Positions 3,701 through 62,300 of a stretch of 64,000 nucleotides of DNA are shown piece after piece. Origin of the DNA: Eledone cirrhosa. Taxonomy: Eukaryota. The stretch is taken from assembly GCA_964016885.1 (NCBI GenBank), contig OZ024740.1:390042001-390106000 (forward strand). Direction: 5' to 3'. Made by a program: the position numbers and the translations under genes. The first letter of the stretch is position 1; every line of letters begins with the position of its first letter. The notes beneath the pieces are model-generated. The model did no database searches. It was given only the letters and a program-made list of their open reading frames with translations, and was not told the origin of the DNA.

Positions 3701-4983
3701 CAACACCTTCATCTCAACCATCATGTTCATATGAAGTCGTCTACTTTTTTCATCCACTCTGTTACTTTTATCAGTCAACACCTTTCTCTTTTATCAATAC
3801 ACTTACTTACTATCATAATTTCTCTCACAAGTCACTTGTGTAATGAAGGATTGCATCACATATCTATTGGAATTTAATTTCCTCTTATCTCTATCCTTCT
3901 TTGTCTCTAGTTATTACTCTACTCCCTCCCATTACTTCCTCCTCAATCAGTGTTGTTGTCCATCATTCTTGCTCTCTAACTTTCAGTGCTACCACACTGT
4001 CACCTTTGACTTTCTCTTCCTTCATGCCACTCATGCTGTTTCTTAGCTGCTCAGTCCAGTAAAAAACATGGGTGCTATGCAGTGAGACTGCACTTGAAGC
4101 TATGTACTTTCAAAGTTAATTCTTTAACCACATTGCTATGATAATAATGCATCAGGACCTATTTGTCAAAGTTAAGGATTAAGATCTGGGATGTATAGGT
4201 TTTATGAATTTGTTTAGTAACACATTTTGTTATATTAGCATGATTCAAGAAGAGCGGTTCCAAATGTTTTGTTTTTTTTCCCTCGGGCATTTAAAAACAT
4301 TGAAGATATTTGATTTTAGTATATTTTCTGTATCTTGCCCATACTATTTAGTAAATATTTTCTATATATTATGTACAATCAAGAAATTGCCTTGTCTTCA
4401 CACTTCTCATGTTATCTGTTCAAACTCCTATCAACAGCCAACTTATAACTATTACTTGCCCTCTCCTCAATTACTCTCTCTCTTACCATCCCATCACACT
4501 ATTATTCATACATCTCTTCTTAGTTATTACATCCAGTCAATTTTCATTTTGTTGCATTTGCCTTGAAAGAATGTGGAGTAGAGAAGACTGTTTGCAGGGG
4601 ACAAGGCAAGCAACCCTTTAAGTGTCAAAGCCTTGTGATAGCTTAGTAACAATATTGGGTATAAAGGACTCTTCAATCATGTCTAGAGCATTTGTTCCTT
4701 AGTGCTGGTTCTATAGTAAACTGTACACTGTAAAGTGGTTGATTATAGAAAGAGTATCCAACTATAGAATTTATACCAAAAATGGTATGCACGTGAGTCT
4801 CTTAACCCTTTAAGGCAGACGTAAAAGGATGATGATGAATCACTGCTAAATAGAAAGCTTTTGGTATACCAAATCTTCGATTTGGTTTTTGGTTGTAACT
4901 ATCTCACATTACTTCAAAAGTTTGATCAATTTAGTATGTTTATTCATACTTTTAAGATATAAGTGAAATATTGGTTGCATCTT

Positions 4984-5022
<39 letters not shown>

Positions 5023-8000
5023 TTTTTCAGGTATCACATTTCCTTCTGGAGATATTCAGAAAAAATTAATTACAGAAGTATATTCAGAAGCTGGAGTTGA
5101 TCCTAAGAATGTGGCATATGTTGAAGCTCATGGTACTGGAACACAAGCAGGAGATCCTCAAGAACTAAACAGCATTACTGATGTATTTTGTAAAGGAAGA
5201 GATGGGCCATTGTTGATTGGTTCAACAAAATCTAACATGGGTCATCCTGAACCTGCCTCGGGTAAAATCATATTTGATGTTATTTTACGATGTTGTTATT
5301 TTACGAAGGTATTTCAGCTCCCTACCTCACATCTACTTGTTATTCTCCTACCATGCTGACTCTGTCTATTTTTCCATCAAAGGCTACAGGCCATGACTGG
5401 CTATTATTGTTGATGTATTCTATCGGCTACTTTGCTATGCGGCGACCCTCTCTCTCTATGATGGCTACCCTCCCCCCCTCTATCTTTCTCTCTATGATGG
5501 CTACCCTCTCTCTATCTCTAAGCCACCCATTACCTCCCATTCCCTCTTCACCCATTCCACCTCACTCATCTTGAAGCTATTGAAGAGATAAGACACTCTA
5601 TTCTGAAAGGCTAAAATGAATCACTAGAGTTGATTTGGCTTCGTTCCAGTCATCCATCTTGATGGCGACCCTCTCTCCCTACCTCACAATTTCCCTCCCA
5701 CCACCATAGCCTATTCGACCAATCGAATCTCAGCATGCCATTTCTTCTGCTACTACTACCTAACTAACTCTCTCCTCCCCTGCCCCAGCCCAAACCCTGC
5801 CATTATCCCACCACCACTGTTCTTCTAGCCCTGAATTTTCCTACCGTTATGGATGGATGAGCTGAGAATAAATTTGAATAACTCTGAATTAGTAGATGAA
5901 ATATGAATCTGCGAGCTACCAAGCACCCATGTGAAGCGCCAATCCAGAGACCCTTCCCTACGAGTGTCGACAAATGCCCAAAACTCCGAGTTGGTACCAT
6001 CAATGTAGGCTCAATTAAAGGAAGAGCAGGAGAAATCGTAGAAATGCTAGAGCGAAAGGAAATTGATGTATGCTGTGTGCAAGAAACTAGATGGAGAGGA
6101 GAGTCTGCTAGAGTCCGTGTAGGAAAAAGTCGGTGCTACACATTTTTCTGGGTGGGAAATGACGATGGGATGGGTGGTGTAGGTATATTACTAGCTGACA
6201 AGTGGGTGGATAAAGTAATCTCAGTGTACAGGGTAAATGCAAGAATCATTAAACTCAGACTAGTCCTGAATAAAACAATTACCACAATAATATCAGCTTA
6301 CGCACCCCAATCGGGGCTGCCAGACGAACTTAAGGATAGGTTTTACGAGTCCCTAATGCACACTACTGCTCTAACAGACGACAATGACTTCCTAATCATC
6401 ACAGGAGATTTTAACGGACACGTAGGTAAACACTGCGACGGCTTCAATAGAGTACATGGAGGCCATGGGGTTGGCACAAGAAATGAGGAAGGATTCAGAC
6501 TTCTAAAATTCTGCGACACCAATGACATGTCGATATGTAACACAAACTTTAAAAAACCCGACAACCACCTGATCACCTATAGATCAGGGGAACACTCTAG
6601 TCAGATAGATTTTATCCTCATCAGAGGACGTGACAGATGGACGGTCGTAAACACAAAAGCCTTCCCTAGTGAGGAATGTACATCTCAACATAGCTTAGTT
6701 GTCAGCGACCTCAAAGTCTGAAACAGAGGCCAACCTGGAGAAGAAAGATCTGGAAGCTGAAAGACCCCTCAACCAGTAACAAATTTAAAGATATTTTACT
6801 CAACGCCTACGACAGTAAAGAAGAACAGATAGACATTCAATGTAGAAGAAAACTGGGAGTTCCTAAAAAATAACTTACTAGAGGCGACGGATGAGGTCTG
6901 TGGCTGGTGTAAGACCTCAAGCAGGAGGAGTGACTTGGTGGTGGAACAATAAGGTAGATGAGGCAGTTAAGGCCAAGAGACGGGCATGGAAAGAATGGAA
7001 GAACGGGGGGAGCAGGGTACATTACATAGAGACCAAGAGGGAAGCTAGGCGACAAGTATACTTAGCTAGGAGGGAAGCAGAGGATAGAAAATTCAAGCAT
7101 GTTTTGCAACGTGAGCACCAGAAACAGGGAGAGAAGTGTATCCGGAATGATAAAGGTGAGCTTGCCATCACAAGTGCTTAGAAGAAAGATGCATGGAAGA
7201 GTCATTATGACAGATTACTAAATGAGGAGAATGCATGGGAAGAAGAGACCCTACCCGAAGTAGACCCTATAGAGGGGCCAGCAGCAACGTAGTAAGTAAG
7301 GCAATCAAAGATATGAAGATGGGGAAGGCAACCGGTCCATCGGGTATAGCTGCCGAGATGCTGAAGGCATCTGGGTCTGTAGGTCACACGTATTGTTAAC
7401 CAGGTAATACTGGAAGGTGTCATACCAAAAGATTGGTGCAGTAGCATCATTGTCAACTGCTACAAAGGTAAAGGTAATGCACTAGATAGAGGAAACTATA
7501 GAGGTATAAAGCTGATGGATCAGGTCATGAAAGTAACAGAAAGAGTTATAGCACAGTTGATTAGGGACCGGGTGAAACTAGATGAGATGCAATTTGGGTT
7601 TGTACCAGGAAGAGGCACCACTGATGCCCTCTTTCTCGTGAGGCAGTTACAGGAAAAGTACCTAGCTAAAAGTAAGCCATTCTACCTGGCATTTGTTGAC
7701 CTTGAGAAAGCTTTTGACAGAGTTCCACGTGCAGTAATCTGGTGGGCTCTTAGAAAACTAGGAGTAGATGAATGGCTTGTGAAAGCTGTACAAGCCATGT
7801 ATAGAGGAGCAGTCAGCAAAGTTAGAATTAGCAATGAGTATAGCGAGGAATTTAGTGTACAGGTTGGTGTCCACCAGGGCTCTGTTCTTAGCCCCTCCTT
7901 TTCATCATAGTCCTGCAGGCAATAAAGGAGAAGTTTAAGACCGGATGCCCATGGGAACTCCTGTATGCTGATGACTTCGCACTTATAGCTGACTCTATGG

Positions 8001-11000
8001 TAGAACTAGAGAAGAAATTCCAAACTTGGAAGCAGGGACTAGAAAGAAAGGGTCTCAAAGTCAACATGACAAAGACTAAGGTCCTTGTAAGTAGACGAGA
8101 AAACAGAACCCAGATCCCCTCAGGAAAATGGCCTTGCTCAGTATGTAGGAAAGGTGTAGGTAGGAACTCCATTCTCTGCCCCAAATGCAAACAATGGGTA
8201 CACAAGAGATGTAGCGGGATCTCAGGAAGCTTAATTAAGAATGTAGGCTTCACTTGCAGCAGCTGTGCTGGGACAGCAAGCAGCAAACAGCCACAGGAAA
8301 CAAGTACCACCAATCTCTGGGAGGGCTCTGTAGAAACAGTAGACAGCTTCTGCTACCTAGGTGACCGAATTAGCAGCGGAGGTGGGTGTTCAGAAAGTAC
8401 AATAACTAGGGTAAGAACGGGATGGAACAAGTTTAGGGAACTACTACCACTGCTAGCTGCAAAAGGCTTCTCCCTCAAAATGAAAGGCAGACTGTATGAT
8501 GCGTGTATCCGAACAGCGATGTTGCATGGTAGTGAGACCTGGGCAGTGAAGGTGGAAGACTTACGTAGATTAGAGAGAAACGAAGCCTGCATGCTCCGAT
8601 GGATGTGTAACAGTAATATACGCGAACGACAAAGCATAAATGAATTGAGAGAGAGACTGAGCATAAGAGGAATCAAATGCTGTGTGCAAGAGAGGCGGTT
8701 GCGCTGGTATGGACATGTGATGCGTATGAAGGATGACAGCTGCATAAAAAGGTGCAGAGCACTAGAAGTCGATGGAAACCGCGGAGTGTGGAGACCCAAG
8801 ATGACCTGGGATGAGGTGATAAAAGCCGACCTTACCCAATTACACCTCTCAAAGGCGATGACACACGACCATGACCTCTGGCGTCACGCATTAATACAGA
8901 GTACCCGACCTCCCATGGGTACAAGCTGAAGCATATAGACAATATGCCCCCACACCCCCCACCGCAAGGTGGTCGTGGAGGTGCCACGGCAAAAAAGCAC
9001 CCAGCCCACACTGTAAAGTGGACGTGTAGGCGCTACGAAAAAGCACCCAGCACTCACTATAAATGAGGTTGGTGTTAGGAAGGGCATCCAACTGTAGAAA
9101 TCAAGCCAAATCAGTTCCTGTATGAGCAAGGCATGGTCAGCCGACCAGACACTGCCCACAACAGGACAACCCGTCTAACCCATGCTAGCGTGGAAGAACG
9201 GACGTAAAACGGTGATGATGGTGATGATTTTCTGAGAGCTGTGAATGAGGGGTACAGGGAATGTATCCTGTCACTGTTGTATTTTCTTCAGAACCATAAG
9301 ACATCTTCTGTACTGGCTGGATATACTTAACTGAAAGTAAATTCTGTAAGTGATATAGTTTGCTATTATAAAGCAAAAACAGCAGTGTGAAGTTGCAAAA
9401 TATTTAATTGGCTTGAAAAAGTCAGAAAAAAATTACCCCAATATAACAGCATCTTATCCATTGGGAACATTTAACTTTTGGTTCAATACTACAGAAATTT
9501 GAATTCAGAAAGGAATAACTTAATTTCATCATTAAGCCATTCATTACTATATTTCCCTATTTTGAAAAAAATTGTGAGAGATTTAGTAATATAACTGTCT
9601 CATTAAGTTGGTGTTTTGTACATATCTTAATTTCTGACTGAAAATTATGATGGGAAGTTTTTGGTTAAATATTAAACGCTTTAAAATAAGCAGTTCTATG
9701 TTGTAGAAACAGGGTCGGTTTCAAGCAGTTGAGTATCAAAAGGATTAATCTGTGTGTATTTCATGTTTCATATGTATATTACAGCAAAAAGTCTTTTCAG
9801 CTCTCAAATTCATTGTTAAGCATTAATTTATATGTATTAACTCTGACTAGCTCCTATATAAGTAGACATATATCACAAGTAGCCAATTAATTGCTTTTAA
9901 GCAACTTATAGGTCTATCATCTTGAGTAATCCACAATGTTGTTTGGGCTGAACTTCATGGCAGTCCATTTTTGTGTATCGTGCTATTTTTAGATTTGAGA
10001 CTTAAAAATTATGTAGTTCCTATTTTAACCCTTTAACCCTTTAGCATACATATTGAATTGTCAAATGTCATGTTCATCTATTCGCATTATTTTCACTTAA
10101 TTATACTCAAGAGGGTTATCAATTTTATTTGTTTGTAATTACTTTAATTTTCTATGTGCAGACTTGAAATTTTGTCAGATGTTTAAAGAACTATAATTTA
10201 CAATTATATATTTTTACCTGATTTTTTTTTGTTAAATTTGACTTTTATGGGCAGGTGAAATTAATTAACAGGTGTAAAAGTAATAACTTTATGGATAAAC
10301 ACAAAAATTAAAACTTTATTTGCCTTACCGGTTAGATTTGTTGCAAAAAAATCCAATAATGATCTAGATGCTGATTTCCATCAATTCTAGCAGTTTTCCG
10401 AACAGGTGAATTAATTAAAAATGCAGGTGTAATCAGTACAAGGTCTTTCTCTACATTCCAGGCAAATATTTTCATTGAAAAAAATGTATAAAACCTTTTC
10501 ACCAGTCAAAATAATATTGGCAATGTACTCTTACACAATGTACGGTGTAAAATTACGTAACAGAATGTTCCCAATATATAAGTTCATTAACAGGTGTGAT
10601 GCAGGTGTGTCACAGGTGAATGCAGGTGTTTTTGTATATGTGTGCTAATATATTTTTAAAATATTGTTTTCAATATTGTCAGACAATATTTCTATCCTGA
10701 TACTGCCCAAAGCACCCTTTACATAATGGCACTTTGCAAAAGGAACACATAAATAGGGTTTGGATTGCGTAACCTTTAACAGTTTTTCTCTTTTGCAAAG
10801 AGCACAATCGGCAAACCTTCCTCCTACCATCAATTCTCTCCACTTTATGAAAATCAATATTTTCTTTGTGGACCACTGCTAATTTTGATTTTTTTTTTTT
10901 TCCCAGCTTTGTGTTTGCGAGAAGTATATCCCCCACGTAGCTGGGATGCAATGTCCACGCAAAATTTCATATGGCAGTAGTCCTTTGGTGGTGGCGGATC

Positions 11001-14000
11001 CTTGTGGCTTTTAGTAAATACAATAAAAGAATTCACAATGGTTAAATTCACTAAAAACCACAAGATGTATCTCCACCATTTCTTTCCAGGGCGTCCAACT
11101 GGGTAATACGCGCAATATTGGTCGGATTTGTCAACCCCACCCATATATTTATTGTAGGAGAGGTTAACTAAAGGTCTACCCTCAGCCCCAACACCTGGTT
11201 GTTGGTTAGAACTCGGGAACAAAATTTGCCGTTTGTCTTTGAACACTGTGGCTAACATGTTCTCTTTTTGCATTTGGAGAATGTCTTCTCTGTTTTTTAG
11301 TTTCGCCACTTTTATTTCTTGGGGTAGCCCTTTCCGATTGCTCATTATTGTGCCGCAGGTGTATGTATTTACAAGGGCAAGATCCTCTGGTAAAAGCACC
11401 GAAGAAAAAAAACGATCAAAATAAATATGTCTGTGTTGAAAGTGAAAGGGTTGAGTCAGCGACCACACAACATCGTAACCCAACCCGTGTTTTCTCTCTC
11501 CGTTAAGTTTTTTTCCTGTGTAAACATCAAAGTTTACACAGTATCCCGTGTCCAATTCACACAGTTCCCACACTTTGATGCCCCATTTGGTGGGTTTAGC
11601 TGGCATATACTGTCTGAAATGAACCCTACCCTTATACCCAATCATAGCTTCATCAACACTAAGATTTTTTTCCAAGTATAGACATACTTTTAAATTTTTC
11701 TGTCAACATTTCAATTAATGGTCGTACTTTGTACAGTGGGTCGTAATTCGATTCATTTCTACCAGGGGCATTTGTAGTATCAACCAGATGCAAATACTGG
11801 TTTAATTTTATAAATCTCGTTTTTGCCATAATACTAGATATATAAGGGTCACCAAACCTTATATCAGTACTCCAATAATTCCACAGTCGTGGAAATTGTT
11901 TAATACCAAACATAATGTTTATGGTAAAAAACGCTTTCATTTCGGCAGAATCTGTCGGACGCCATAACAGATCAGGTTTTCCTCGGTTAGAAATTTGTTG
12001 TTGTGCATAGTGATTTGTCTCTTCTGCCACAACTTCGAAGAAAGTTTGTGGTAAAAATAAAAAAAAATAATCCAGTGCTTTAGCATCAGGTGGTAATGTG
12101 TGTTGTGGTCCAGTATTTTCATTAAAATCTGAAACATGTATCGGTGTTGTTTCTTTCAACCACGTTGGTGTTTTTTCAATGGTGTCAGATATATCTTCGC
12201 TTTCACTTTCAAAGTGACTATCATCATCAGATATATCAGAAATAAATATCTGATTCATTTGAAGATAAATCACTGATATTATCTTGTTTCTTTTTTTATC
12301 TTGAATGTCGTAGGATGTAAAACCTTCAAATTCGTTGTCGCTACTTTTGGAAGCCATGTTACAATTTCAAAGTTAAAAACACGTGTTATCGCAAGGTCTT
12401 TAACTATACTAAGAGTTAATTTTTGCGCATAAGGGCTTTATCTCGCTGTAATCTCGAATTGACGAGATTTTGATGATGTCAATGTTTATTTTTAGAAGGA
12501 GATCTACGTGTGGTCTGAAATGTCGGTTTTTGTCGGTTTGAATAAATGAAAGGGGACATAATCTTGTCGGTTTTTGTCACTTTGAACGCTAAAGGGTTAA
12601 TGTTCAAACCGGCCAGAATTCTCTACCTCTTTCTGTTGAAACTGGCTGTAACTGGTCGCTCAAACTGATGTTACGGTATTGTTCTCAAAATAAATACTTT
12701 CAAAATCTCATAGATTCAATACTATGTGAGATAATTATGTGAGGTAAAGCCTTTACGATGAAAATATAATAGTATATATAGAGTAATGTGAATGCTAAAG
12801 GGTTAAAGATAGTGGAAAGTTCGTGCAAGTAGGTTTGACTGTTACATTACAAAGATTTAGAAAATTTCCATAACTGGTTTGTGACTTTAAAGTTCTGAAT
12901 ATTGTTAGAGAAGAATCTATTTGTAAACTTTCGTAAACTTATTTTCATAAAAAATTTAGATTCAAGACTATTGAGGAAGTAATAGATTGTTGGCAATAGG
13001 ACTTATTTTAAGTGAGCATAATTTTCAGTTAATAACAGACCAGGTTGTTTTAAAAGATACTTAATTAAATTTATGAAACATATATCATCGTCATGTTCCT
13101 GCAACTGGTGCAGCCAATTGTTGGGGGTGTCCTCTAGGCGCTTTTGCAGTCACTTGTCGCCATTCATCTCTATTCTCTGTCATGCATAGAAGCGTCTTGG
13201 TGTTGTGACTAGTCCAGTCTTTGATGTCGGACCAGGATTTTCTTTGTCTGCCTCATCTTTGCCATCCCTTGATTGCCCTGAAAGATGGTTTTGGACAAAT
13301 TGTGGTGGGATATATGACTATACCAGGCAAACTTCCATTTTTTCACTATTGCAAGGAGTGGTTCTTGTCTGCCAGCATATTTAACTTGCTGCCTGACAAA
13401 GCTGTTTGCTTTGTACTCCATGTGTAGCATCCTTCTGAATCACTTGTACTCAAATTCTTTGTTCCATGTCAGCTGTGAGAGTCCAACTCTCAAACTCATG
13501 CAAAAAGGGTCGAAATCACCAAGGACTTGTATAGTTGGAGCTTCATTGGAAAACTGATGCAGTTGCTTTTCCATATGATGTTCAGCTTTCCCTTGGCAGA
13601 GGTGACCAAGGCGAGTCTTGTCAGTATCATTTTTTGAGATCTGCCATCTTTGGTCAGAGTGGATTCTCTGTACTTGACGATGTCCACGTTCAAGTACCTA
13701 GGAATCATATATAGAAATCAGTAAATAAATTTAGTGCCTCCGTCGACTTATGGTCTTGAAATGGTTTGGTCTACTTCTCATACTTTGAACATTAACCAAA
13801 GAAAAACAATAGCTACATTTGAACACTACATTTGAACACATACAATTTATCTGAGATTAATATGTGGATTTTGAATATCAAATAGAGTTGGAAGGTATCT
13901 TCTTAAGAATAAGAAAATATATATTGCTTTTTTTACCTTTTAAAAGAACGTTAGTGTCATTCACTTGGAAATTAGTTTCAAAACTTTAACTTTGTTTTTT

Positions 14001-21700: not shown

Positions 21701-24700
21701 AGAATTCTGGCTGGATATGGCCGGTTTAAATGCTAAAGAGTTGAATCATTAAATTACTTTCTTAATGTTTTATCTTTTCTTACTTTCAGTTGGTCTATTT
21801 CCCATGTTTTCAGAGAGAGGTGTGTGCATGTGCATGAGTGTGTGTGTTTCAGCACTACAATATTAATAAATAATATGGGTTATACATAGCTGTGGTTGCT
21901 TACCATTACATAAAAATAATGGCTATATCAACTTATGAGCTTATTCAGAAGTAGGTGAATGGGCTGTTGAGAGTTCAATATCTTGATCATAGACACCAGT
22001 GTAGTGACAGTGATTTCGTAGGATTTCAATCATCTATGTTGGTTGTCTGCTATTCTCTTCATTTAGCTATCTATAATGTTGAATGATATATATGCATACA
22101 TGATTTGTCTATAGATTAACATTGAATTTCTGAAGCTATAATTGTAATAATACCCTTTTAAACTGTCACAGTCTGTAGAAAGTTCTATCCCTGTTTAGTG
22201 ATTCAGTGATATATTTAGTGTTTGAAAGCTATATTAATGGAGTGAAACTCAACAAAACTGAACATTTTTTATAACACATCTAATGCATCACAAATGGAGG
22301 TTTAGATAAGCAGTCCAATTTAAACTCTTTAATACAAGTATCTAATAGCAAGTAAAATTTAACTCAAATATTACCGACATGAGGAGAATAAAATGGGAGA
22401 AAGACAGTCTCCCCCACATCGACCCAATAGAGGGACCAGCAGTGTTAGTCGAGGGTAGTATAATAAGTAAGGCAATCAAGGATATGAAGACGGGTAAGGC
22501 GGCTGGGCCTTCGGAAATAGTTGCTGAGATGCTGAAGGCATCTGGCACGGTGGGACACACCATGGTCACCCGGATAGTTAACCAAGTCGTACAGAATGGG
22601 GTTGTTCCGAAGGACTGGCATAGCAGCATCATCGTTAACTGTTATAAGGGTAAAGGAGATGCCCTAGATAGGAGTAACTATAGAGGCATTAAATTAATCG
22701 ACCAGGTCATGAAGGTCACGGAAAAAGTAATAGCGCAACTAATCAGAGAGAGAATTGACCTAGATGAAATGCAGTTCGGGTTTGTGTCAGGCAAAAGTAC
22801 CACAGACGCTCTTTTCATTGTACGACAACTACAGGAGAAGTACCTAGCTAAAAGTAAACCCCTCTACTTAGCTTTTGTCGACTTGGAGAAAGCCTTCGAC
22901 AGAGTCCCCCGTTCCATTATATGGTGGGCCCTTAAAAAACTAGGTGTCGACGAATGGCTTGTGAGAGCTATACAAGCCATGTATAAAGAAACAGTCAGCA
23001 AGGTTAGAATTAACAACGAATATAGTGAAGAGTTTAGCGTAAAAGTTGGCGTCCATCAGGGCTCTGTTCTCAGCCCCCTACTATTTATTATTGCCCTTCA
23101 GGCTATAACAGAGGAGTTCAAGACCAGCTGCCCATGGGAACTCCTATACGCAGACGACCTAACACTCATAGCTGAATCAATGGCCGAGCTAGAGAAGAAA
23201 TTCCAAACATGGAAGCGCGGCCTAGAATCAAAAGGCCTTAAAATTAATCTGGCTAAGACCAAAGTTCTAGTTTGTAGGAAAGAAAATAAGGCGGCGGTCC
23301 CTTCCGGGAAGTGGCCATGCTCAGTGTGTAGGAAAGACGTAGGTAGAAACTCCATTTTGTGTCAGAAATGCAAAGTATGGGTGCATAAAAGATGTAGTGG
23401 GATCACAGGTAAGCTAACTAAGAACATAGATTTCACATGTGGCCGGTGCTCTGGTGCAATAAGTAGCAGCAAGTGCCCACAAAATACTAGCTCTTTCAAC
23501 TGCGCAGAGGGCTCTATAGAAATAGTGGACAGCTTCCGTTACCTGGGTGACAAAATCAGCAGTGGGGGAGGGTGCTCTGAAAGTACAGTAGCTAGAGTCA
23601 GAACTGGATGGAAAAAGTTCAGAGAGCTTATACCACTATTAGCCGCTAAAGGGTTCTCCCTAAAAACGAAAGGCAGGTTGTATGATGCCTGCATACGAAC
23701 AGCAATGTTGCATGGCAGTGAGACCTGGGCATTGTGTGCAGAGGATATACGCAGACTAGAGAGGAACGAAGCTTGCATGCTCCGCTGGATGTGTAATAGT
23801 AATATACGTGAACGGCAAAGCATAAACGAACTAAGGAAAAAATTAGAAATAAGAGGGATCAGATGTTGTTTACTCGAGAGAAGGCTACGTTGGTATGGAC
23901 ACGTGATGCGCATGAAAGTCGATAGCTGTATAACAAAGTGCAGGGCAATAAAGATAGACGGTAGCCACGGAATAGGCAGACCTAGAAAAACCTGGGACGA
24001 GCTGATAAACTCCGACCTCACACACTTACACCTCTCCAAGACAATGTCACTGGACCGAGACCTTTGGCGGTACTCAGTAATAGAGAAGACCCGCCTTACC
24101 TAAATACATAGTAAAACCTACTACAGCCAGTAGGCATCTCTAACAAAATACACCCCGTCCCACCACCCCCACCCCATCCACACCACCCCCTTCTATGTAA
24201 AGTTAAGTTGGTGCCACGCCATCCAGGCCGAAACAAATGAGATCGTGTAGGTGTCACGACAAAAAAAACACACAGTCCACGCTGTAATGTGGCCGTGTAG
24301 GCAACACGGTAAAAACCTCCCAGACCCACTGTAAATGTGGTTGGTGTTAGGAAGGGCATCAAACTGTAGAAAACCTGCCAGACAGTCCTATGCGAGCAAG
24401 ACAATCACTCTTGCCTCAAGTGGGAAAACCCCTGTCCAAACCCATGCAAGCGTGGAACACGGACGTTAAACGTTGATGATGATGATGATTAGTGGTTAAC
24501 AACAACACAAATAGCATGAAGAAAAACAGTCTTGCATGGTAGACTTAATGATTTGCCTGGTTTAATAACACTAGCTGGTGCTTGGGTGTTTTTAGCAGAT
24601 TCAACTCTGTTGTAAACATTTGACCTTGGACTTCTGTGTAAGGATGCCTTCCTTCCTTCCTTCCTCCCTCCCACCCACCTGTCAGTTTTGAAGGCCCTGA

Positions 24701-46710: not shown

Positions 46711-50319
<3,609 letters not shown>

Positions 50320-51770: not shown

Positions 51771-51980
51771 ATCATCATCAACGTTTAACGTCCGTGTTCC
51801 ACGCTTGCATGGGTTTGGACGGGGGTAGTCCCACTTGAGGCAAGAGTGATTGTCTTGCTCGCATAGGACTGTCTGGCAGGTTTTCTACAGTTGGATGCCC
51901 TTCCTAACACCAACCACATTTACAGTTTACAGTGTGGGTCTGGGAGGTTTTTACCGCGTTGCCTACACGGCCACATTACA
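51771..51980 (-). mobile_element. RTE family B 3'UTR fragment
   Basis: Reverse complement of about 49820-50020. Confidence 0.9.
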
Positions 51981-51995
51981 TATATATATATTTAT

Positions 51996-52039
<44 letters not shown>

Positions 52040-52084
52040 ATTAAATATTAAATAAATGGAAAACTATATTTATAAAACCATATT

Positions 52085-52150
52085 TATTTCATTATATATA
52101 TTTCGGGGATATCATATTAACAATATGCTATGCCTTCATCAGACAAAATA
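52085..52150 (-). ncRNA. Minimal type I hammerhead ribozyme (mirror copy)
   Basis: Reverse complement of 52229-52294. Confidence 0.7.
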
Positions 52151-52228
52151 CAATATAAACAGTTTTATAGATAAATATATAAATATATATATAAATATAT
52201 ATACATATCTATAAAACTGTTTATATTG

Positions 52229-52294
52229 TATTTTGTCTGATGAAGGCATAGCATATTGTTAATATGATATCCCCGAAATATATATAATGAAATA
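52229..52294 (+). ncRNA. Minimal type I hammerhead ribozyme
   Basis: tattttgt-CTGATGA-(stem II with catatt/aatatg)-GAAA-tatata-TA-atgaaata; stem I 8 bp with two G-U pairs; palindromic stem III. Confidence 0.72.
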
Positions 52295-52426
52295 AATATG
52301 GTTTTATAAATATAGTTTTCCATTTATTTAATATTGTAAATATACTCCAAGTATTTGTCGAGTGCTTTTATATCAGTTATAAATATTTACTAGTTGTAAC
52401 CCAACAATTTTAAATATAACTTTACA

Positions 52427-52638
52427 TGTATATATATATATATATATGTATATATATGTATATATATGTATATGTATATATATGTATATATATGTATATA
52501 TATATATGTATATATATGTATATATATGTATATATATATATGTATATATATGTATATATATATATGTATATATATGTATATATATGTATATATATATATA
52601 TGTATATATATGTATATGTATATATATGTATATATATG

Positions 52639-52671
<33 letters not shown>

Positions 52672-52758
52672 GTATATATATGTATATATATGTATATATA
52701 TGTATGTATATATGTATGTATATATGTATATATATGTATATATATGTATGTATATATG

Positions 52759-52813
<55 letters not shown>

Positions 52814-52908
52814 GTATATATATGTATGTATATATGTATATGTATATATGTATATATATATATGTATATATATATATGTATATATATATATGTATATGTA
52901 TGTATATG

Positions 52909-52941
<33 letters not shown>

Positions 52942-52958
52942 ATATATATGTATGTATG

Positions 52959-53029
<71 letters not shown>

Positions 53030-53115
53030 GTATATATATGTATATATATATGTATATATATGTATATATATATGTATATATATATATATATGTATATATA
53101 TGTATATATATATAT
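52427..53115. repeat. (TA)nTG array
   Basis: Directly visible. Confidence 0.95.
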
Positions 53116-53269
53116 ACAGCACTCACTGTATATACAGCACTCACTGTAAATGAGGTTGGTGTTAGGAAGGGCATCCAGCTGTAGAAATCAAGCCAGAATC
53201 AGTTCCCGTCCCACCCTTGCAAGCAGGGAAAAGCGGACGTAAAATGAAATGATGAAATGATGAAATGAT
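53116..53269 (+). mobile_element. RTE-related 3' fragment with a (TGAAATGA)n tail
   Basis: First part matches family A 9049-9118, then a different terminus and tail. Confidence 0.75.
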
Positions 53270-54637
<1,368 letters not shown>

Positions 54638-54690
54638 TGTAAAATCAAGTTAAATAAAAGTCAAATGATTAAAATTTAGCTTCGTTTATT

Positions 54691-54746
54691 ACTGCTATAT
54701 ATATTTCAGTGACACGCTATCTTTGGCTGTGACCTCTTCAGGCAGT
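54691..54746 (-). ncRNA. Minimal type I hammerhead ribozyme in the 3' pLTR
   Basis: Reverse complement: actgc-CTGAAGA-stem II-GAAA-tatata-TA-gcagt. Confidence 0.78.
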
Positions 54747-55935
54747 TTTGAATTAGTATGGTATAGACAAGTACATATGTTGTATAGGTGTATGATATTG
54801 TCAATACTCTGATATGCCCAGTTCCTTGCTGGGTTGTTAATTCACTGGGGAACTGGAGTTATATGAATTCAAACAAACGAATTTTCGTGTCACAGGTCCC
54901 CATTCTCCTCTCATTGGTCAGTTATTAGTGTTGTCATTGTTGGAGTTAGCTTAAAAATTGATAAAATGGTAGAAGGGACAAGGTGTTGAAGGAACAAAAT
55001 ATAAAAAAATGTGTCAAACTTCCCATTGTTCAGTTCTGAGAGCATTCCTCAGTCAGAAGTCTATAGAATTCTTTCTGAGGTGAGGCTCCCTGTAGTGTTT
55101 ATGCCTGCTATTGTTCAGTACATTTGACCTCCACCATTATTTTGGTACTGTTGTTGTTGTAGTGGTCAGCTTATATCTTGCTGCTGCTAACAATTTAGAA
55201 GTATTCAGTTTGTGTTTTCTCTTCATCCCACCCGCCACCATCGTAGTGGTGGTGGCGGGGGGGGGGGTTATTTCATGTATATGAAGAAATATAAGGCAAT
55301 AAATGAAGAAAACAGAAGATAAATAAATAATATAATAAAATAAAATAATTAATATAATTTGTGTAATTTGAAAATAAATAAATAAATAGAGAATAAAGAA
55401 TAAAGAGTAAATGAGAGATTGGTGAAAAAGTAATGATAATGTATATGGAGAAGTGAGAAATAATGTAGGATAAAGTGTGTGTGTGTGTGTGTGCTATAAC
55501 CAATCTCAAGGTCAGAATATGTTGGATAGATTGGTATGATACAAGATGTTAAGATGAGATATTCAATGTGTTTGTGTTATAATCTATCTCAACTTAAAAT
55601 AAATATATGGTTATACAGTGAAGAGGGCAGAAAACAAATAACAAATTAATATAGAGAAATCAAGATTTAAGATTGGAACTTTAAAGTCAGAAATCTGGTA
55701 AATTAAAAGTGTTTGTGTTATAGATGTTGGCCAGATTATTATGGCTGTGTCCGATTCTGTCTCTAGGCTATCATGGTGTCTGCTCCGCCTGGGTTGTTCC
55801 CTATGGCTTGAGGGGAGTTCACAACCTAGGGTGTTGTAATTGTTCATATAGCTTGAGGGAGGTCTGGCCGAGAGGTGTTTTCATGTTCTGTAGAAGTCCC
55901 TATAGCTTGAGGGGAGTTCACATCTTCTTGTGTTG

Positions 55936-57459
55936 CTACTGTCCATATATTTTGAGAAAGGTCCCGGCTCTAAGGTGTCTGCATGTCCCGAAGAAGTCGG
56001 TTCTGAGGTTTATCAGGCCGCTTCCACCTCTTAGTATCTCGAGGGTCTCGTTCAGGCATAGTTTGCATATGCAAGATCCCCCTTTATCGGGTGGTACTTT
56101 CCTGATTATGTACCAGGCCAGAGAGTATGGGGTCCTGTCCAGCTTAAGCTTCCAGATCAGGTCGGAGAGAGCTGTGCTTTTCCTTTTGGCCTCCTTCTTG
56201 AATGAATGGCGATGGTTGTACCAGCGGTCCTTAAAGCTCGTTGATGTGGCTCCTATGTAGAGGTGTTCGGAGTTGGGGGTTTTAACCCTACAACCGTACA
56301 CTATGTTCTTCTTGAGACATTCATTACCAAGGGGGCATGATTCGGGGTTTCTACAGTTGCAGAGGGTGGGCGGCCTCTGCGTACTTAGATTAGGGTTCTC
56401 ATTATGTGTTACATGTTGGTCTTCCCCCATGCTCGGTGGGGGGTCCTTGGGTCTGTTTGTGTTTCTTGGGTGGGCTCTGGGTCCCCCCTTCCCTCCTTTC
56501 ACATGGTTCTGCTGAGTGTTTGTATTGCCATCTTCTGGTTGTGTGTGGTTTTTAAGCCTACTTCTGTTGATGCTAGCTATGTGTTGGGCCAAATTTCTCG
56601 TGGTGGAATACGAAAGCTTCACAGTGTGTCTGTTGAAGATCCTGTGGTATCTGTGGTCCCTCGGGAAGCATTTGTCAAGTGCTCCAAAGAACAATCGGGC
56701 CAAGCTTTTCTTTAGGGCCGCTGAGTAGGGTGGGTTGTACCACGTGATTTGTCGGTGTCTCCTCCTATATGTGTGGGTTGGGGGCTTCGTGATTTGTTGG
56801 AGATTTGTTGGTTTGCTGGTGGTTTCCGCACTGTTGCTTCCCTTTTGGGCTCTATACTTTCTGTTATCTTCACGGCCCGGATTTGTGGGGTGGTTGTTGT
56901 CTGCCCCGGGAGATCCATCGTGGGGTGGTCGCCCGTTTCCTCCCCCCCCACGTGTCCTGCGGTTGGGGTTGTCCGTCCTGGGGTAGTTAGCATCACGCCT
57001 GAGACTGCTACTCATATTGTGCTCCATCTCGTGGTCAAGCGCACTAGTCCCCACCGCCCGTGTGGTGGTGTCTGGTACATGGTGCCTATTTGATTTTGCT
57101 CTGCCTGTATTGTTAGGGTTCGCCCTCCCCCCTCTGGTAACGCGGTTGTGGGTGTCTGTTGGGCTATCCACCTCCCGGCTTTTCGGACTATATGTTATAT
57201 TTAGTCCATGTGCTGCCTTCTTTAGAGCTGCGTTGTAATATTCCGCGTGGTTGTTGAATATTTCCTTACTTGCGGACAGGCTAGAGATCCTGTCCGAGAC
57301 ACTCTTCACCACTGCCTTGGTTATGGATCTAGGGTGGTTTGATTTGGCGTTAACATATACTAGTTTCTCGTTGGGCTTGTGGTAGGGGTAGTATTGCTCG
57401 GTGTTCAGGTTTAGGGTGGTGTCTAGGAAGTTAACTACCTTCCTATTTGGGTCTATTTC
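55936..57459 (-). CDS. PLE polyprotein, partial (RT thumb plus GIY-YIG endonuclease)
   Basis: VNFLDTTL...YHKPNE..YVNAKSNHP, TWYNPPYS, VKLSYS, CNCRNPESC (CxCx5C), IVY...YIG...RWYNH, STALS, CKLCLNE. Confidence 0.88.
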   Translation of the reverse strand, partial: EIDPNRKVVNFLDTTLNLNTEQYYPYHKPNEKLVYVNAKSNHPRSITKAVVKSVSDRISSLSASKEIFNNHAEYYNAALKKAAHGLNITYSPKSREVDSPTDTHNRVTRGGRANPNNTGRAKSNRHHVPDTTTRAVGTSALDHEMEHNMSSSLRRDANYPRTDNPNRRTRGGGGNGRPPHDGSPGADNNHPTNPGREDNRKYRAQKGSNSAETTSKPTNLQQITKPPTHTYRRRHRQITWYNPPYSAALKKSLARLFFGALDKCFPRDHRYHRIFNRHTVKLSYSTTRNLAQHIASINRSRLKNHTQPEDGNTNTQQNHVKGGKGGPRAHPRNTNRPKDPPPSMGEDQHVTHNENPNLSTQRPPTLCNCRNPESCPLGNECLKKNIVYGCRVKTPNSEHLYIGATSTSFKDRWYNHRHSFKKEAKRKSTALSDLIWKLKLDRTPYSLAWYIIRKVPPDKGGSCICKLCLNETLEILRGGSGLINLRTDFFGTCRHLRAGTFLKIYGQ

Positions 57460-57481
57460 TGTCTATACCATACTAATTCAA

Positions 57482-57536
57482 ACTGCCTGAAGAGGTCACA
57501 GCCAAAGATGGCTGTCACTGAAATATATATAGCAGT
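57482..57536 (+). ncRNA. Minimal type I hammerhead ribozyme in the inverted pLTR
   Basis: Stem I actgc/gcagt, CTGAAGA, stem II acagcca/tggctgt with aaga loop, GAAA, palindromic tatata; predicted cut after A57531. Confidence 0.82.
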
Positions 57537-57711
57537 AATAAACGAAGCTAAATTTTAATCATTTGACTTTTATTTAACTTTATTTTACACTACTCTGGAG
57601 TAACCAAACCAACCTGCGCACTTCGTCGAGTGCTCCAGCCTGCATACTGAGGTGTTGGTATACAACCAACATAAACTCAAAATCTATATATATATATGTA
57701 TATATGTATAT

Positions 57712-59253
57712 ATGGCTTGTGAGGGCTATACAAGCCATGTATAAAGAAACAGTCAGCAAGGTTAGAATTAACAACGAATATAGTGAAGAGTTTAGCGTAA
57801 AAGTTGGCGTCCATCAGGGCTCTGTTCTCAGCCCCCTACTATTTATTATTGCCCTTCAGGCTATAACAGAGGAGTTCAAGACAGGCTGCCCATGGGAACT
57901 CCTATACGCAGACGACCTGACACTCATAGCGGAATCAATGGCCGAGCTAGAGAAGAAATTCCAAACATGGAAGCACGGCCTAGAGTCAAAAGGACTTAAA
58001 ATTAACCTGGCTAAGACCAAAGTTCTAGTTTGTAGGAAAGAAAACAAGGCGGCGGTCCCTTCTGGGAAATGGTCGTGCTCGGTGTGTAGGAAAGGCGTAG
58101 GTAGAAACTCCATTTTGTGTCCTAAATGCAAAGTATGGGTGCATAAAAGATGTAGTGGGATCACAGGTAAGCTAACTAAGAACATAGATTTTACATGTGG
58201 CCGGTGTTCTGGTGCAATAAGTAGCAGCAAGTGCCCACACAATACTAGCTCTTTCAATTGCGCAGAGGGTTCTATAGAAATAGTGGACAGCTTCCGTTAT
58301 CTGGGCGATAAAATCAGCAGTGGGGGAGGGTGCTCTGAAAGTACTGTAGCTAGAGTCAGAACTGGTTGGAAAAAGTTCAGAGAGCTTATACCACTATTAG
58401 CTGCTAAAGGGTTCTCCCTAAAAATGAAAGGCAGGTTGTACGATGCCTGCATACGAACAGCAATGTTGCATGGCAGTGAGACCTGGGCATTGTGTGCAGA
58501 GGATATACGCAGACTAGAGAGGAACGAAGCTTGCATGCTCCGCTGGATGTGTAACAGTAATATACGTGAACGGCAAAGCATAAACGAACTAAGGAAAAAA
58601 TTAGAGATAAGAGGGATCAGATGTTGTTTACTCGAGAGAAGGCTACGTTGGTATGGACACGTGATGCGCATGAAAGTCGATAGCTGTATAACAAAGTGCA
58701 GGGCAATAAAGATAGACGGTAGCCACGGAATAGGCAGACCTAGAAAAACCTGGGACGAGCTGATAAACTCCGACCTCACACACTTACACCTCTCCAAGAC
58801 AATGTCACTGGACCGAGACCTTTGGCGGTACTCAGTAACAGAGAAGACCCGCCTTGCCAGTAGGCATCTCTAACAAAATACACCCCCGTCCCACCACCAC
58901 CACCCCCACCCCATCCACACCACCCCCACCCCATCCACACCACCCCGTCCTATGTAAAGTTATGTTGGTGCCGCGCCATCCGGGCCGAAACAAATGAGAT
59001 CGTGTAGGTGTCACGACAAAAAAACACACAGTCCACGCTGTAATGTGGCCGTGTAGGCAACACGGTAAAAACCTCCCAGACCCACACTGTAAATGTGGTT
59101 GGTGTTAGGAAGGGCATCCAACTGTAGAAAACCTGCCAGACAGTCCTATGCGAGCAAGACAATCACTCTTGCCTCAAGTGGGACTACCCCCGTCCAAACC
59201 CATGCAAGCGTGGAACACGGACGTAAAACGTTGATGATGATGATGATGATGAT
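57712..59253 (+). mobile_element. RTE family B, 5'-truncated
   Basis: ORF 57704-58873 with [15 protein letters not shown]; (GAT)n tail; 3' part nearly identical to 48851-50033. Confidence 0.95.
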
Positions 59254-60949
<1,696 letters not shown>

Positions 60950-62300
60950 TTCTAGTTTGTAGGAAAGAAAATAAGGCGGCGGTCCCATCGGGGAAATGGC
61001 CATGCTCAGTGTGTAGGAAAGGCGTAGGTAGAAACTCCATTTTATGTCCCAAATGCAAAGTATGGGTGCATAAAAGATGTAGTGGGATCACAGGTAAGCT
61101 AACTAAGAACATAGATTTTACATGTGGCCGGTGCTCTGGTGCAATAAGTAGCAGCAAGTGCCCACAAAATACTAGCTCCTTCAACTGCGCAGAGGGTTCT
61201 ATAGAAATAGTGGACAGCTTCCGTTATCTGGGTGACAAAATCAGCAGTGGGGGAGGGTGCTCTGAAAGTACAGTAGCTAGAGTCAGAACTGGATGGAAAA
61301 AGTTCAGAGAGCTTATACCACTATTAGCCGCTAGAGGGTTCTCCCTAAAAATGAAAGGCAGGTTATACGATGCCTGCATACGAACAGCAATGCTGCATGG
61401 CAGTGAGACCTGGGCATTGTGTGCAGAGGATATACGCAGACTAGAGAGGAACGAAGCTTGCATGCTCCGCTGGATGTGCAATAGTAATATACGTGAACGG
61501 CAAAGCATAAACGAACTAAGGAAAAAATTAGAAATAAGAGGGATCAGATGTTGTTTACTCGAGAGAAGGCTACGTTGGTACGGTCACGTGATGCGCATGA
61601 AAGACGACAGCTGTATAACAAAGTGCAGGGCAATAAAGATAGACGGTAGCCACGGAGTAGGCAGACCCAGAAAAACATGGGACGAGCTGATAAATTCCGA
61701 CCTCACACGCTTACACCTCTCCAAGACAATGTCACTGGACCGAGACCTTTGGCGGTACTCAGTAATAGAGAAGACCCGCCTTACCTAAATACAAAGTAAA
61801 AACCTACTACAGTCAGTAGGCACCTCTATCAAAACACACCCCCGTCCCACCACCTCCACCCCACCCACACCGCCCCTTTCAATGTAAAGTTATGTTGGTC
61901 CCACAACATCCAGGCCGAAACAAATGAGATCGTGTAGGTGTCACGACAAAAAACACACAGTCCACGCTGTAAATGTGGCCGTGTAGGCAACACGGTAAAA
62001 ACCTCCCAGCCCCACACTGTAAATGTGGTTGGTGTTAGGAAGGGCATCCAGCTGTAGAAAACCAGCCAGACAGTCCACGCTGTAATGTGGCCGTGTAGGC
62101 AACACGGTAAAAACCTCCCAGCCCCACACTGTAAATGTGGTTGGTGTTAGGAAGGGCATCCAACTGTAGAAAACCCGCCAGACAGTCCTATGCGAGCAAG
62201 ACAACCACTCTTGCCTCAAGTGGGAAAACCCCCGTCCAAACCCATGCAAGCGTGGAACACGGACGCTAAACCTGATGATGATGATGATGATGATGATGAT
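60950..62300 (+). mobile_element. RTE family B, 5'-truncated, with a 3'UTR tandem duplication of about 113 bp
   Basis: LVCRKENK...KTRLT*; (GAT)n tail. Confidence 0.94.

Follow-up and report, generated by a model that had tools for sequence, protein, structure and literature searches.

The palindrome at positions 52034–52428 of the window, the whole 64,000-nucleotide stretch of DNA analysed here, is, with high confidence, a very short, protein-less, head-to-head insertion of a young Penelope-like element (PLE) of the Hydra type. Its form is probably the outcome of two reverse transcriptions that started from both cut ends of a (TA)n target. We refer to it as the stump, and give family positions relative to 52206, which is taken as 0. 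Its features, together with a neighbouring insertion, are as follows.

51978–52033, no strand: left (TA)n target microsatellite
52034–52180, minus strand: arm B, pLTR copy from -7 to +132, its outer end carrying a 7-bp duplication (52037–52050)
52087–52148, minus strand: minimal type I hammerhead motif of arm B, mirror of the plus-strand copy
52181–52205, no strand: AT filler of 25 nt at the head-to-head junction
52206–52338, plus strand: arm A, pLTR copy from 0 to +132
52231–52292, plus strand: minimal type I hammerhead motif of arm A, with CTGATGA at 52237–52243, GAAA at 52275–52278, and stems I and II
52339–52428, plus strand: tail of 90 nt (+133 to +222), on arm A only
52343–52366, plus strand: first candidate start signal, TACTC...GTCGAGTGCT
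52429–53130, no strand: right (TA/TATG)n target microsatellite
54638–57684, minus strand: insertion of a second Hydra-type PLE family with a two-arm layout, separate from the stump and listed for comparison only

Build of the palindrome and its hammerheads

As the first-pass annotation had reported, 52044–52173 is the exact reverse complement of 52206–52335 (130 bp, no mismatches, 32 bp apart). The intervening 32 bp had been described as an AT spacer; the distance stands, but the left arm continues to 52180, which leaves a filler of only 25 nt. We infer that this filler is a stutter of either the arm end or the TA flank; a genome search with the junction returned a full match at one locus only, that of the stump. 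The outer ends lie at about 52034 and about 52428. At the left end AATATTA occurs twice, and because of this 7-bp duplication the exact match between the arms stops short there. Both flanks are TA repeats with no mirroring beyond them, and between such microsatellites a target-site duplication is not readable. The only open reading frames of at least 150 aa at the palindrome are microsatellite read-through, in keeping with the earlier description of it as non-coding.

Each arm contains CTGATGA (at 52237 on the plus strand and 52142 on the minus strand), GAAA-TATATATA and a stem I that can pair, as had been claimed. The CUGANGA and GAAA core, a NUH site, stems I and II and a palindromic stem III together define a minimal type I hammerhead, with cleavage of the arm A copy predicted after 52286. 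Stem pairing is conserved across copies: 130 of 160 stem cells are paired, compared to 109.3 +/- 3.3 in shuffles (none of 2000 reached the observed value), in a set of 10 representatives of 54 motif variants whose relatedness inflates the score. Rfam gave no hammerhead, either at 52200–52420, where four chance matches were returned, or among 150 of 196 matches listed for 48–60 kb. Position 4 of stem II is a C-C mismatch in nine of the ten representatives, while neighbouring pairs covary. Hammerheads of the amplifying subfamily have more wobble and mismatch pairs than those of older subfamilies.

It had been suggested that the hairpin would mask its own ribozyme unless cleavage were co-transcriptional. 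Such an escape is unlikely, because the head-to-head geometry means that, whichever strand is transcribed, the complement is made ahead of the ribozyme, and the full hairpin folds at -207 kcal/mol versus -8.7 kcal/mol for the lone hammerhead motif; the ribozyme is therefore likely to be inert. Minimal hammerheads are reported to be inactive as monomers (PMC4209133), and PLE insertion in vitro is described as proceeding without need for ribozyme cleavage (PMC11167929). With no ORF, no second start signal (see below) and its ribozyme locked in a hairpin, the stump is likely to be dead.

The source family and its neighbour

A genome search with the segment from 0 to +214 (52206–52420) gave 634 candidates. 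All 40 that were scored are 100% identical to the query, and 32 of them lie on a single contig (C1). The autonomous partner sought by the first-pass annotation is present elsewhere in the genome as an intact master, L061, in the order pLTR, tail, 736-aa ORF, 3' UTR, pLTR, with a unit of 3969 bp; in L061 and a second copy, L062, the ORFs are intact (736–737 aa) and start at +268. The PLE origin of the arms is supported, as is the earlier alternative of an extremely 5'-truncated PLE insertion.

The L061 ORF has 18 database relatives at 30–42%, and a model built from their alignment (pLDDT 85.5) finds its best structural matches among telomerase reverse transcriptases (TERT, E 1.9e-9). Searches of the whole ORF against Pfam and PDB sequences returned nothing at E 0.001 and one chance match at E 5.8. 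RWR is recognisable at 37, DKT at 117 and the reverse transcriptase motif YRDD at 351. The linker CxCx5C reads CNCRDRSKC at 595, and a motif reading of the whole ORF places GIY-YIG-like residues at the C-terminus (IVYNC/YVG, R640, E699, N711), where CDLC at 693 and CCKH at 719 correspond to the CxxC and CxH motifs around the E and N. In the 40 loci selected by their tails the tail ends enter TA repeats, a preference for (TA)n. The combination of RWR, DKT, CxCx5C and TA targeting matches the definition of the Hydra clade in PMC8557442, and on these motifs we class the young, abundant family (family 1) as Hydra-type.

The Hydra clade of EN+ PLEs described by Craig et al. (2021; PMC8557442) includes a cephalopod member, Hydra-1_Obim, and an element, Penelope-13_HM, that has an inverted 5'-truncated copy. 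Family 1 resembles these elements, as they are characterised there, in its reverse transcriptase and putative C-terminal EN (by motif), its RW(K/R), DKT and CxCx5C linker, its pLTR hammerhead, its (TA)n targets, its tandem and inverted truncated copies and a tail on one end. It departs from the published descriptions in unit length (3969 bp with a long 3' UTR, against less than 3 kb, a descriptive rather than diagnostic trait), in tail length (90 nt against 30–40) and in its hammerhead, which has a C-C mismatch in a long stem II and a stem III of TATATATA, unlike the Hydra motifs listed in the same paper.

The element at 54638–57684 belongs to a different family (family 2): identity to family 1 in the EN half is 41% at the amino acid level, in agreement with the earlier assignment of the stump to a second family. 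TACTC, GTCGAGTGCT (52357 and 57625) and CCAACA are common to both, as had been claimed. The supposed likeness of layout holds in that both have two arms, but the tail-bearing arm of the neighbour is its short, inverted one, opposite to the ORF. Its two arms differ at four places, and its long arm has three variants, within the span compared, that are absent from its own tail arm and from the other arms sampled. A genome search for family 2 gave 285 candidates, from which loci L127–L156 were sampled.

The shared motif is a candidate start signal. Each family 1 unit contains two copies of GTYGAGYGCT, at +151 and +240, and each copy is preceded by a T(A/G)CTC able to pair with it (YRCUC...GTYGAGYGCT); between the two repeats an A-U pair is replaced by G-C, a change also seen in family 2. 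The alignment of the repeats is modestly above chance, its score being reached by 43 of 2000 shuffles for a motif chosen after looking. The two copies lie 19 and 18 nt after the outer ends of inserted copies, at +132 and about +222; in family 2 the motif is about 36 nt away from the +132-type end. The master has its second signal past the end of the tail, and the stump does not contain it. Since inserted copies end before that signal, a stump should not regenerate a tailed copy.

Ends, junctions and arms of sibling copies

We compared 40 loci selected by the tail and 40 selected by the +132 end. Both samples consist of top-scoring copies, mostly from two contigs; for the second, a query of arm plus TA flank gave no candidates and a longer query did. 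An inverted partner accompanies 29 of the 40 tail-selected copies and in each case ends at about +132; the remaining 11 comprise nine without a partner, one that abuts an N gap and one with a small fold-back (L083). Conversely, 33 of the 40 copies in the +132 set have a partner, which in every case ends at the tail end (about +222); seven stand alone. Five of the 33 partners start at +130 or later, wholly inside the tail and with zero overlap with the other arm. The outer ends are, in short, fixed and asymmetric.

The inner ends follow no such rule. They lie anywhere between zero and more than a full unit, the position in one arm being independent of that in the other, and neither arm is consistently the longer; the +132 arm carries sequence absent from the tail arm in six of 29 loci and in 10 of 16 further ones. 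Eleven of the 40 tail-selected copies, the stump included, are short palindromes in which neither inner end extends beyond -76, and one (L097) is shorter than the stump. Tail arms end at -45 to -76, around a TCA at -60, in 12 of 39 cases; for those ending within 200 bp the proportion is 12 of 18 (binomial p 2e-6, for an interval picked after looking). Of 30 tail arms in family 2, 20 extend as far as TC|ATATGA (-91) and 17 of these 20 end at it; three of the 17 carry an additional G, perhaps a copy of the cap. At the junctions there are short overlaps or fillers, mostly different from locus to locus, although two junctions recur (L166 = L172, and L075 = L115 = L174); in L010, L166 and L172 the junction is made up of a native hairpin (-65 to -49).

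Arm-to-arm conversion, offered earlier as one explanation for the unmutated arms, is not needed. Both arms of the stump have the commonest sequence of the family, and since 18 of the 24 arm pairs compared (of 29) are likewise identical over the tested span, youth alone suffices. In the other six pairs, locus-private variants are common to both arms, including arms kilobases apart. The 14 family 2 pairs show mostly common subfamily variants, some of them discordant; in one (L149) the arms differ at four variants that are also present in other copies. The two arms thus usually derive from one RNA or one source locus, a conclusion compatible with twin priming and fold-back alike.

Several copies depart from the simple layout. 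L062 and L199 are different insertions whose tail arms both start at -578, upstream of a full unit, and whose partner arms differ; a common source locus or an upstream start may account for this. The +132 arm of L063 covers one whole unit and continues for about 50 nt into the preceding tail, which fits a tandem or circular template. L106 has an internal duplication of +8 to +116, and L172 contains, at 884–1061 from the arm start, a second, non-overlapping miniature (+33 to +132 with +152 to +222). The single-arm copies L070 and L203 are joined not to TA but to a similar unrelated repeat, perhaps through a template jump or as a favoured target. Truncation at the hammerhead cut (+80/81) was seen in none of 10 extra loci, retrieved with a query from +86. 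A deletion in L174 (about +75 to +162), which crosses the 3' half of the hammerhead with microhomology, was rejected as evidence of such truncation, and a CA before position 0 in L034–L036 was rejected as query bias.

Origin of the two arms

On balance we favor a twin-priming route. The protein of the element would nick both strands of the TA repeat, and one DNA end would prime at +132 of the RNA and its counterpart at +222, in both cases immediately 5' of one of the two signal copies. Each cDNA would then extend until drop-off or until the 5' end of the RNA (about -60); joining of the cDNA 3' ends by microhomology or filler, and repair of the gaps, would complete the insertion. The stump would reflect an early stop of both cDNAs (at 0 and -7), and long arms would stem from tandem or circular templates. 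More tentatively, the PLE tail and the inverted pLTR may be products of one and the same reaction, in which signals 90 nt apart yield independent cDNAs that end up fused head to head. An ordinary mRNA primed on its 5' pLTR would in that case give strong-stop-like stumps ending at the cap, and ORF-bearing copies would come only from tandem or circular templates. Because the stops at -60 and -91 both coincide with small palindromes and ATAT, microhomology could yield these clusters even without a transcription start.

The most serious rival, though an unlikely one, is fold-back: self-priming of the cDNA or of antisense RNA would make the second arm, the endonuclease would make the +132 end, and later deletion of the center would produce the asymmetry. 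Self-priming has been argued for in PMC3846280, L083 contains a small fold-back, and the native hairpin forms the junction in three copies; its loop, however, is on the tail arm in L010 and on the other arm in L166 and L172. Private variants common to both arms, even kilobases apart, are also predicted by fold-back, and the six pairs that carry them do not separate the two readings. Simple fold-back cannot, on the other hand, make the five partners that lie inside the tail without overlap, nor does it sit well with the seven +132 arms that stand alone, with the fact that either arm can be the longer, or with those family 2 pairs that differ at variants present in other copies (four in L149). 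It is because of the non-overlapping and lone arms that we prefer two independent priming events.

That the stump is a MITE-like non-autonomous element, a palindrome copied whole by PLE machinery, was the other branch of the earlier interpretation and is very improbable. Although short palindromes account for over a quarter of the tail-selected copies and two junctions recur, the recurrent junctions are located at the preferred stop, the spacer of the stump occurs once and the other junctions examined differ from one another; moreover, arm lengths form a continuum and the stump is without the +240 signal. Least credible of all is a fold-back artefact of assembly or library. The read check skipped 52164–52215, so that reads give no support across the spacer; against an artefact are the unmirrored flanks past the TA repeat, the coincidence of both ends with the fixed ends of the family, the presence of filler and a 7-bp duplication, and a layout common to 45 two-armed loci (29 + 16) with mostly different junctions.

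Tails and inverted truncated copies are commonplace among PLEs (PMC8557442, PMC3846280), and the stump locus is ordinary debris of a known class. Pairs of opposite-strand hammerheads, there 100–700 bp apart, were read as truncated PLEs by Cervera and De la Peña (2014; PMC4209133), whose motifs share the extra base before stem II and the palindromic stem III; the passages on these pairs contain no mapping of ends or junctions, which are mapped here. The stump also resembles the animal non-LTR retrozymes of a recent preprint (bioRxiv 10.64898/2026.07.22.740005) in being non-coding, PLE-derived and equipped with a type I hammerhead, but retrozymes are portrayed there as direct tandem monomers, each with a hammerhead, whereas the arms of the stump are inverted. 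In Poseidon PAc (Frangieh et al. 2024; PMC11167929) a PLE is reported to cut and extend both strands in vitro, from two start sites bounding the tail. Family 1 is similar in its two sites bounding the tail, its AT-rich target and the both-strand extension proposed here. The Poseidon start sites, by that account, lie inside the ORF and are the same on both strands in vitro; those proposed for family 1 lie 5' of the ORF, and the ends of its copies are strictly asymmetric. The main text of PMC11167929 does not tie the start sites to inverted copies, and the paper is not known to describe a duplicated signal.

The origin of inverted and tandem PLE structures has been posed as an unsolved question (PMC8557442), and the published reading of inverted copies is antisense self-priming (PMC3846280). 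A literature search for Penelope with twin priming, strong-stop or initiation, with subscription papers outside its scope, found no statement of a two-arm model; the data on independence of the two arms are the only part of this work that goes beyond findings in print. Two independent primings would link the pair of start sites observed in vitro to genomic structures and would explain why a tandem arrangement is required for activity. With its intact master and mapped sites, this young family allows the two-arm reading to be tested directly.

In L1 twin priming, two target ends prime on the RNA and a 5' inversion results; the position of the second priming event is random there, and the resulting segments share no sequence. 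Family 1 differs in that its two sites are fixed and its arms overlap in most cases.

Such stumps would seed perfect dsRNA hairpins of 130–200 bp in host introns. FASN-like exons lie upstream of the stump on the plus strand, and KR exons (by KR profile) lie 46 kb downstream on the same strand; the stump is therefore presumably intronic, as had been proposed. FASN motifs matched no exon at 33–64 kb of the window or in the next 30 kb, and a whole-window repeat search was dominated by TA repeats. The FASN-like introns hold what we take to be many near-identical pieces of RTE-type LINEs (5900–8929, 22349–24103, 46764–49674, 57578–58873 and 60454–61788) and, at 10854–12366, presumably a piggyBac-like transposase remnant, named from motifs. 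Just downstream of the window, at about 3900–8500 of locus L157, fragments of a third related PLE family lie in the same intron, with their own copy of the GAGCGCT motif.
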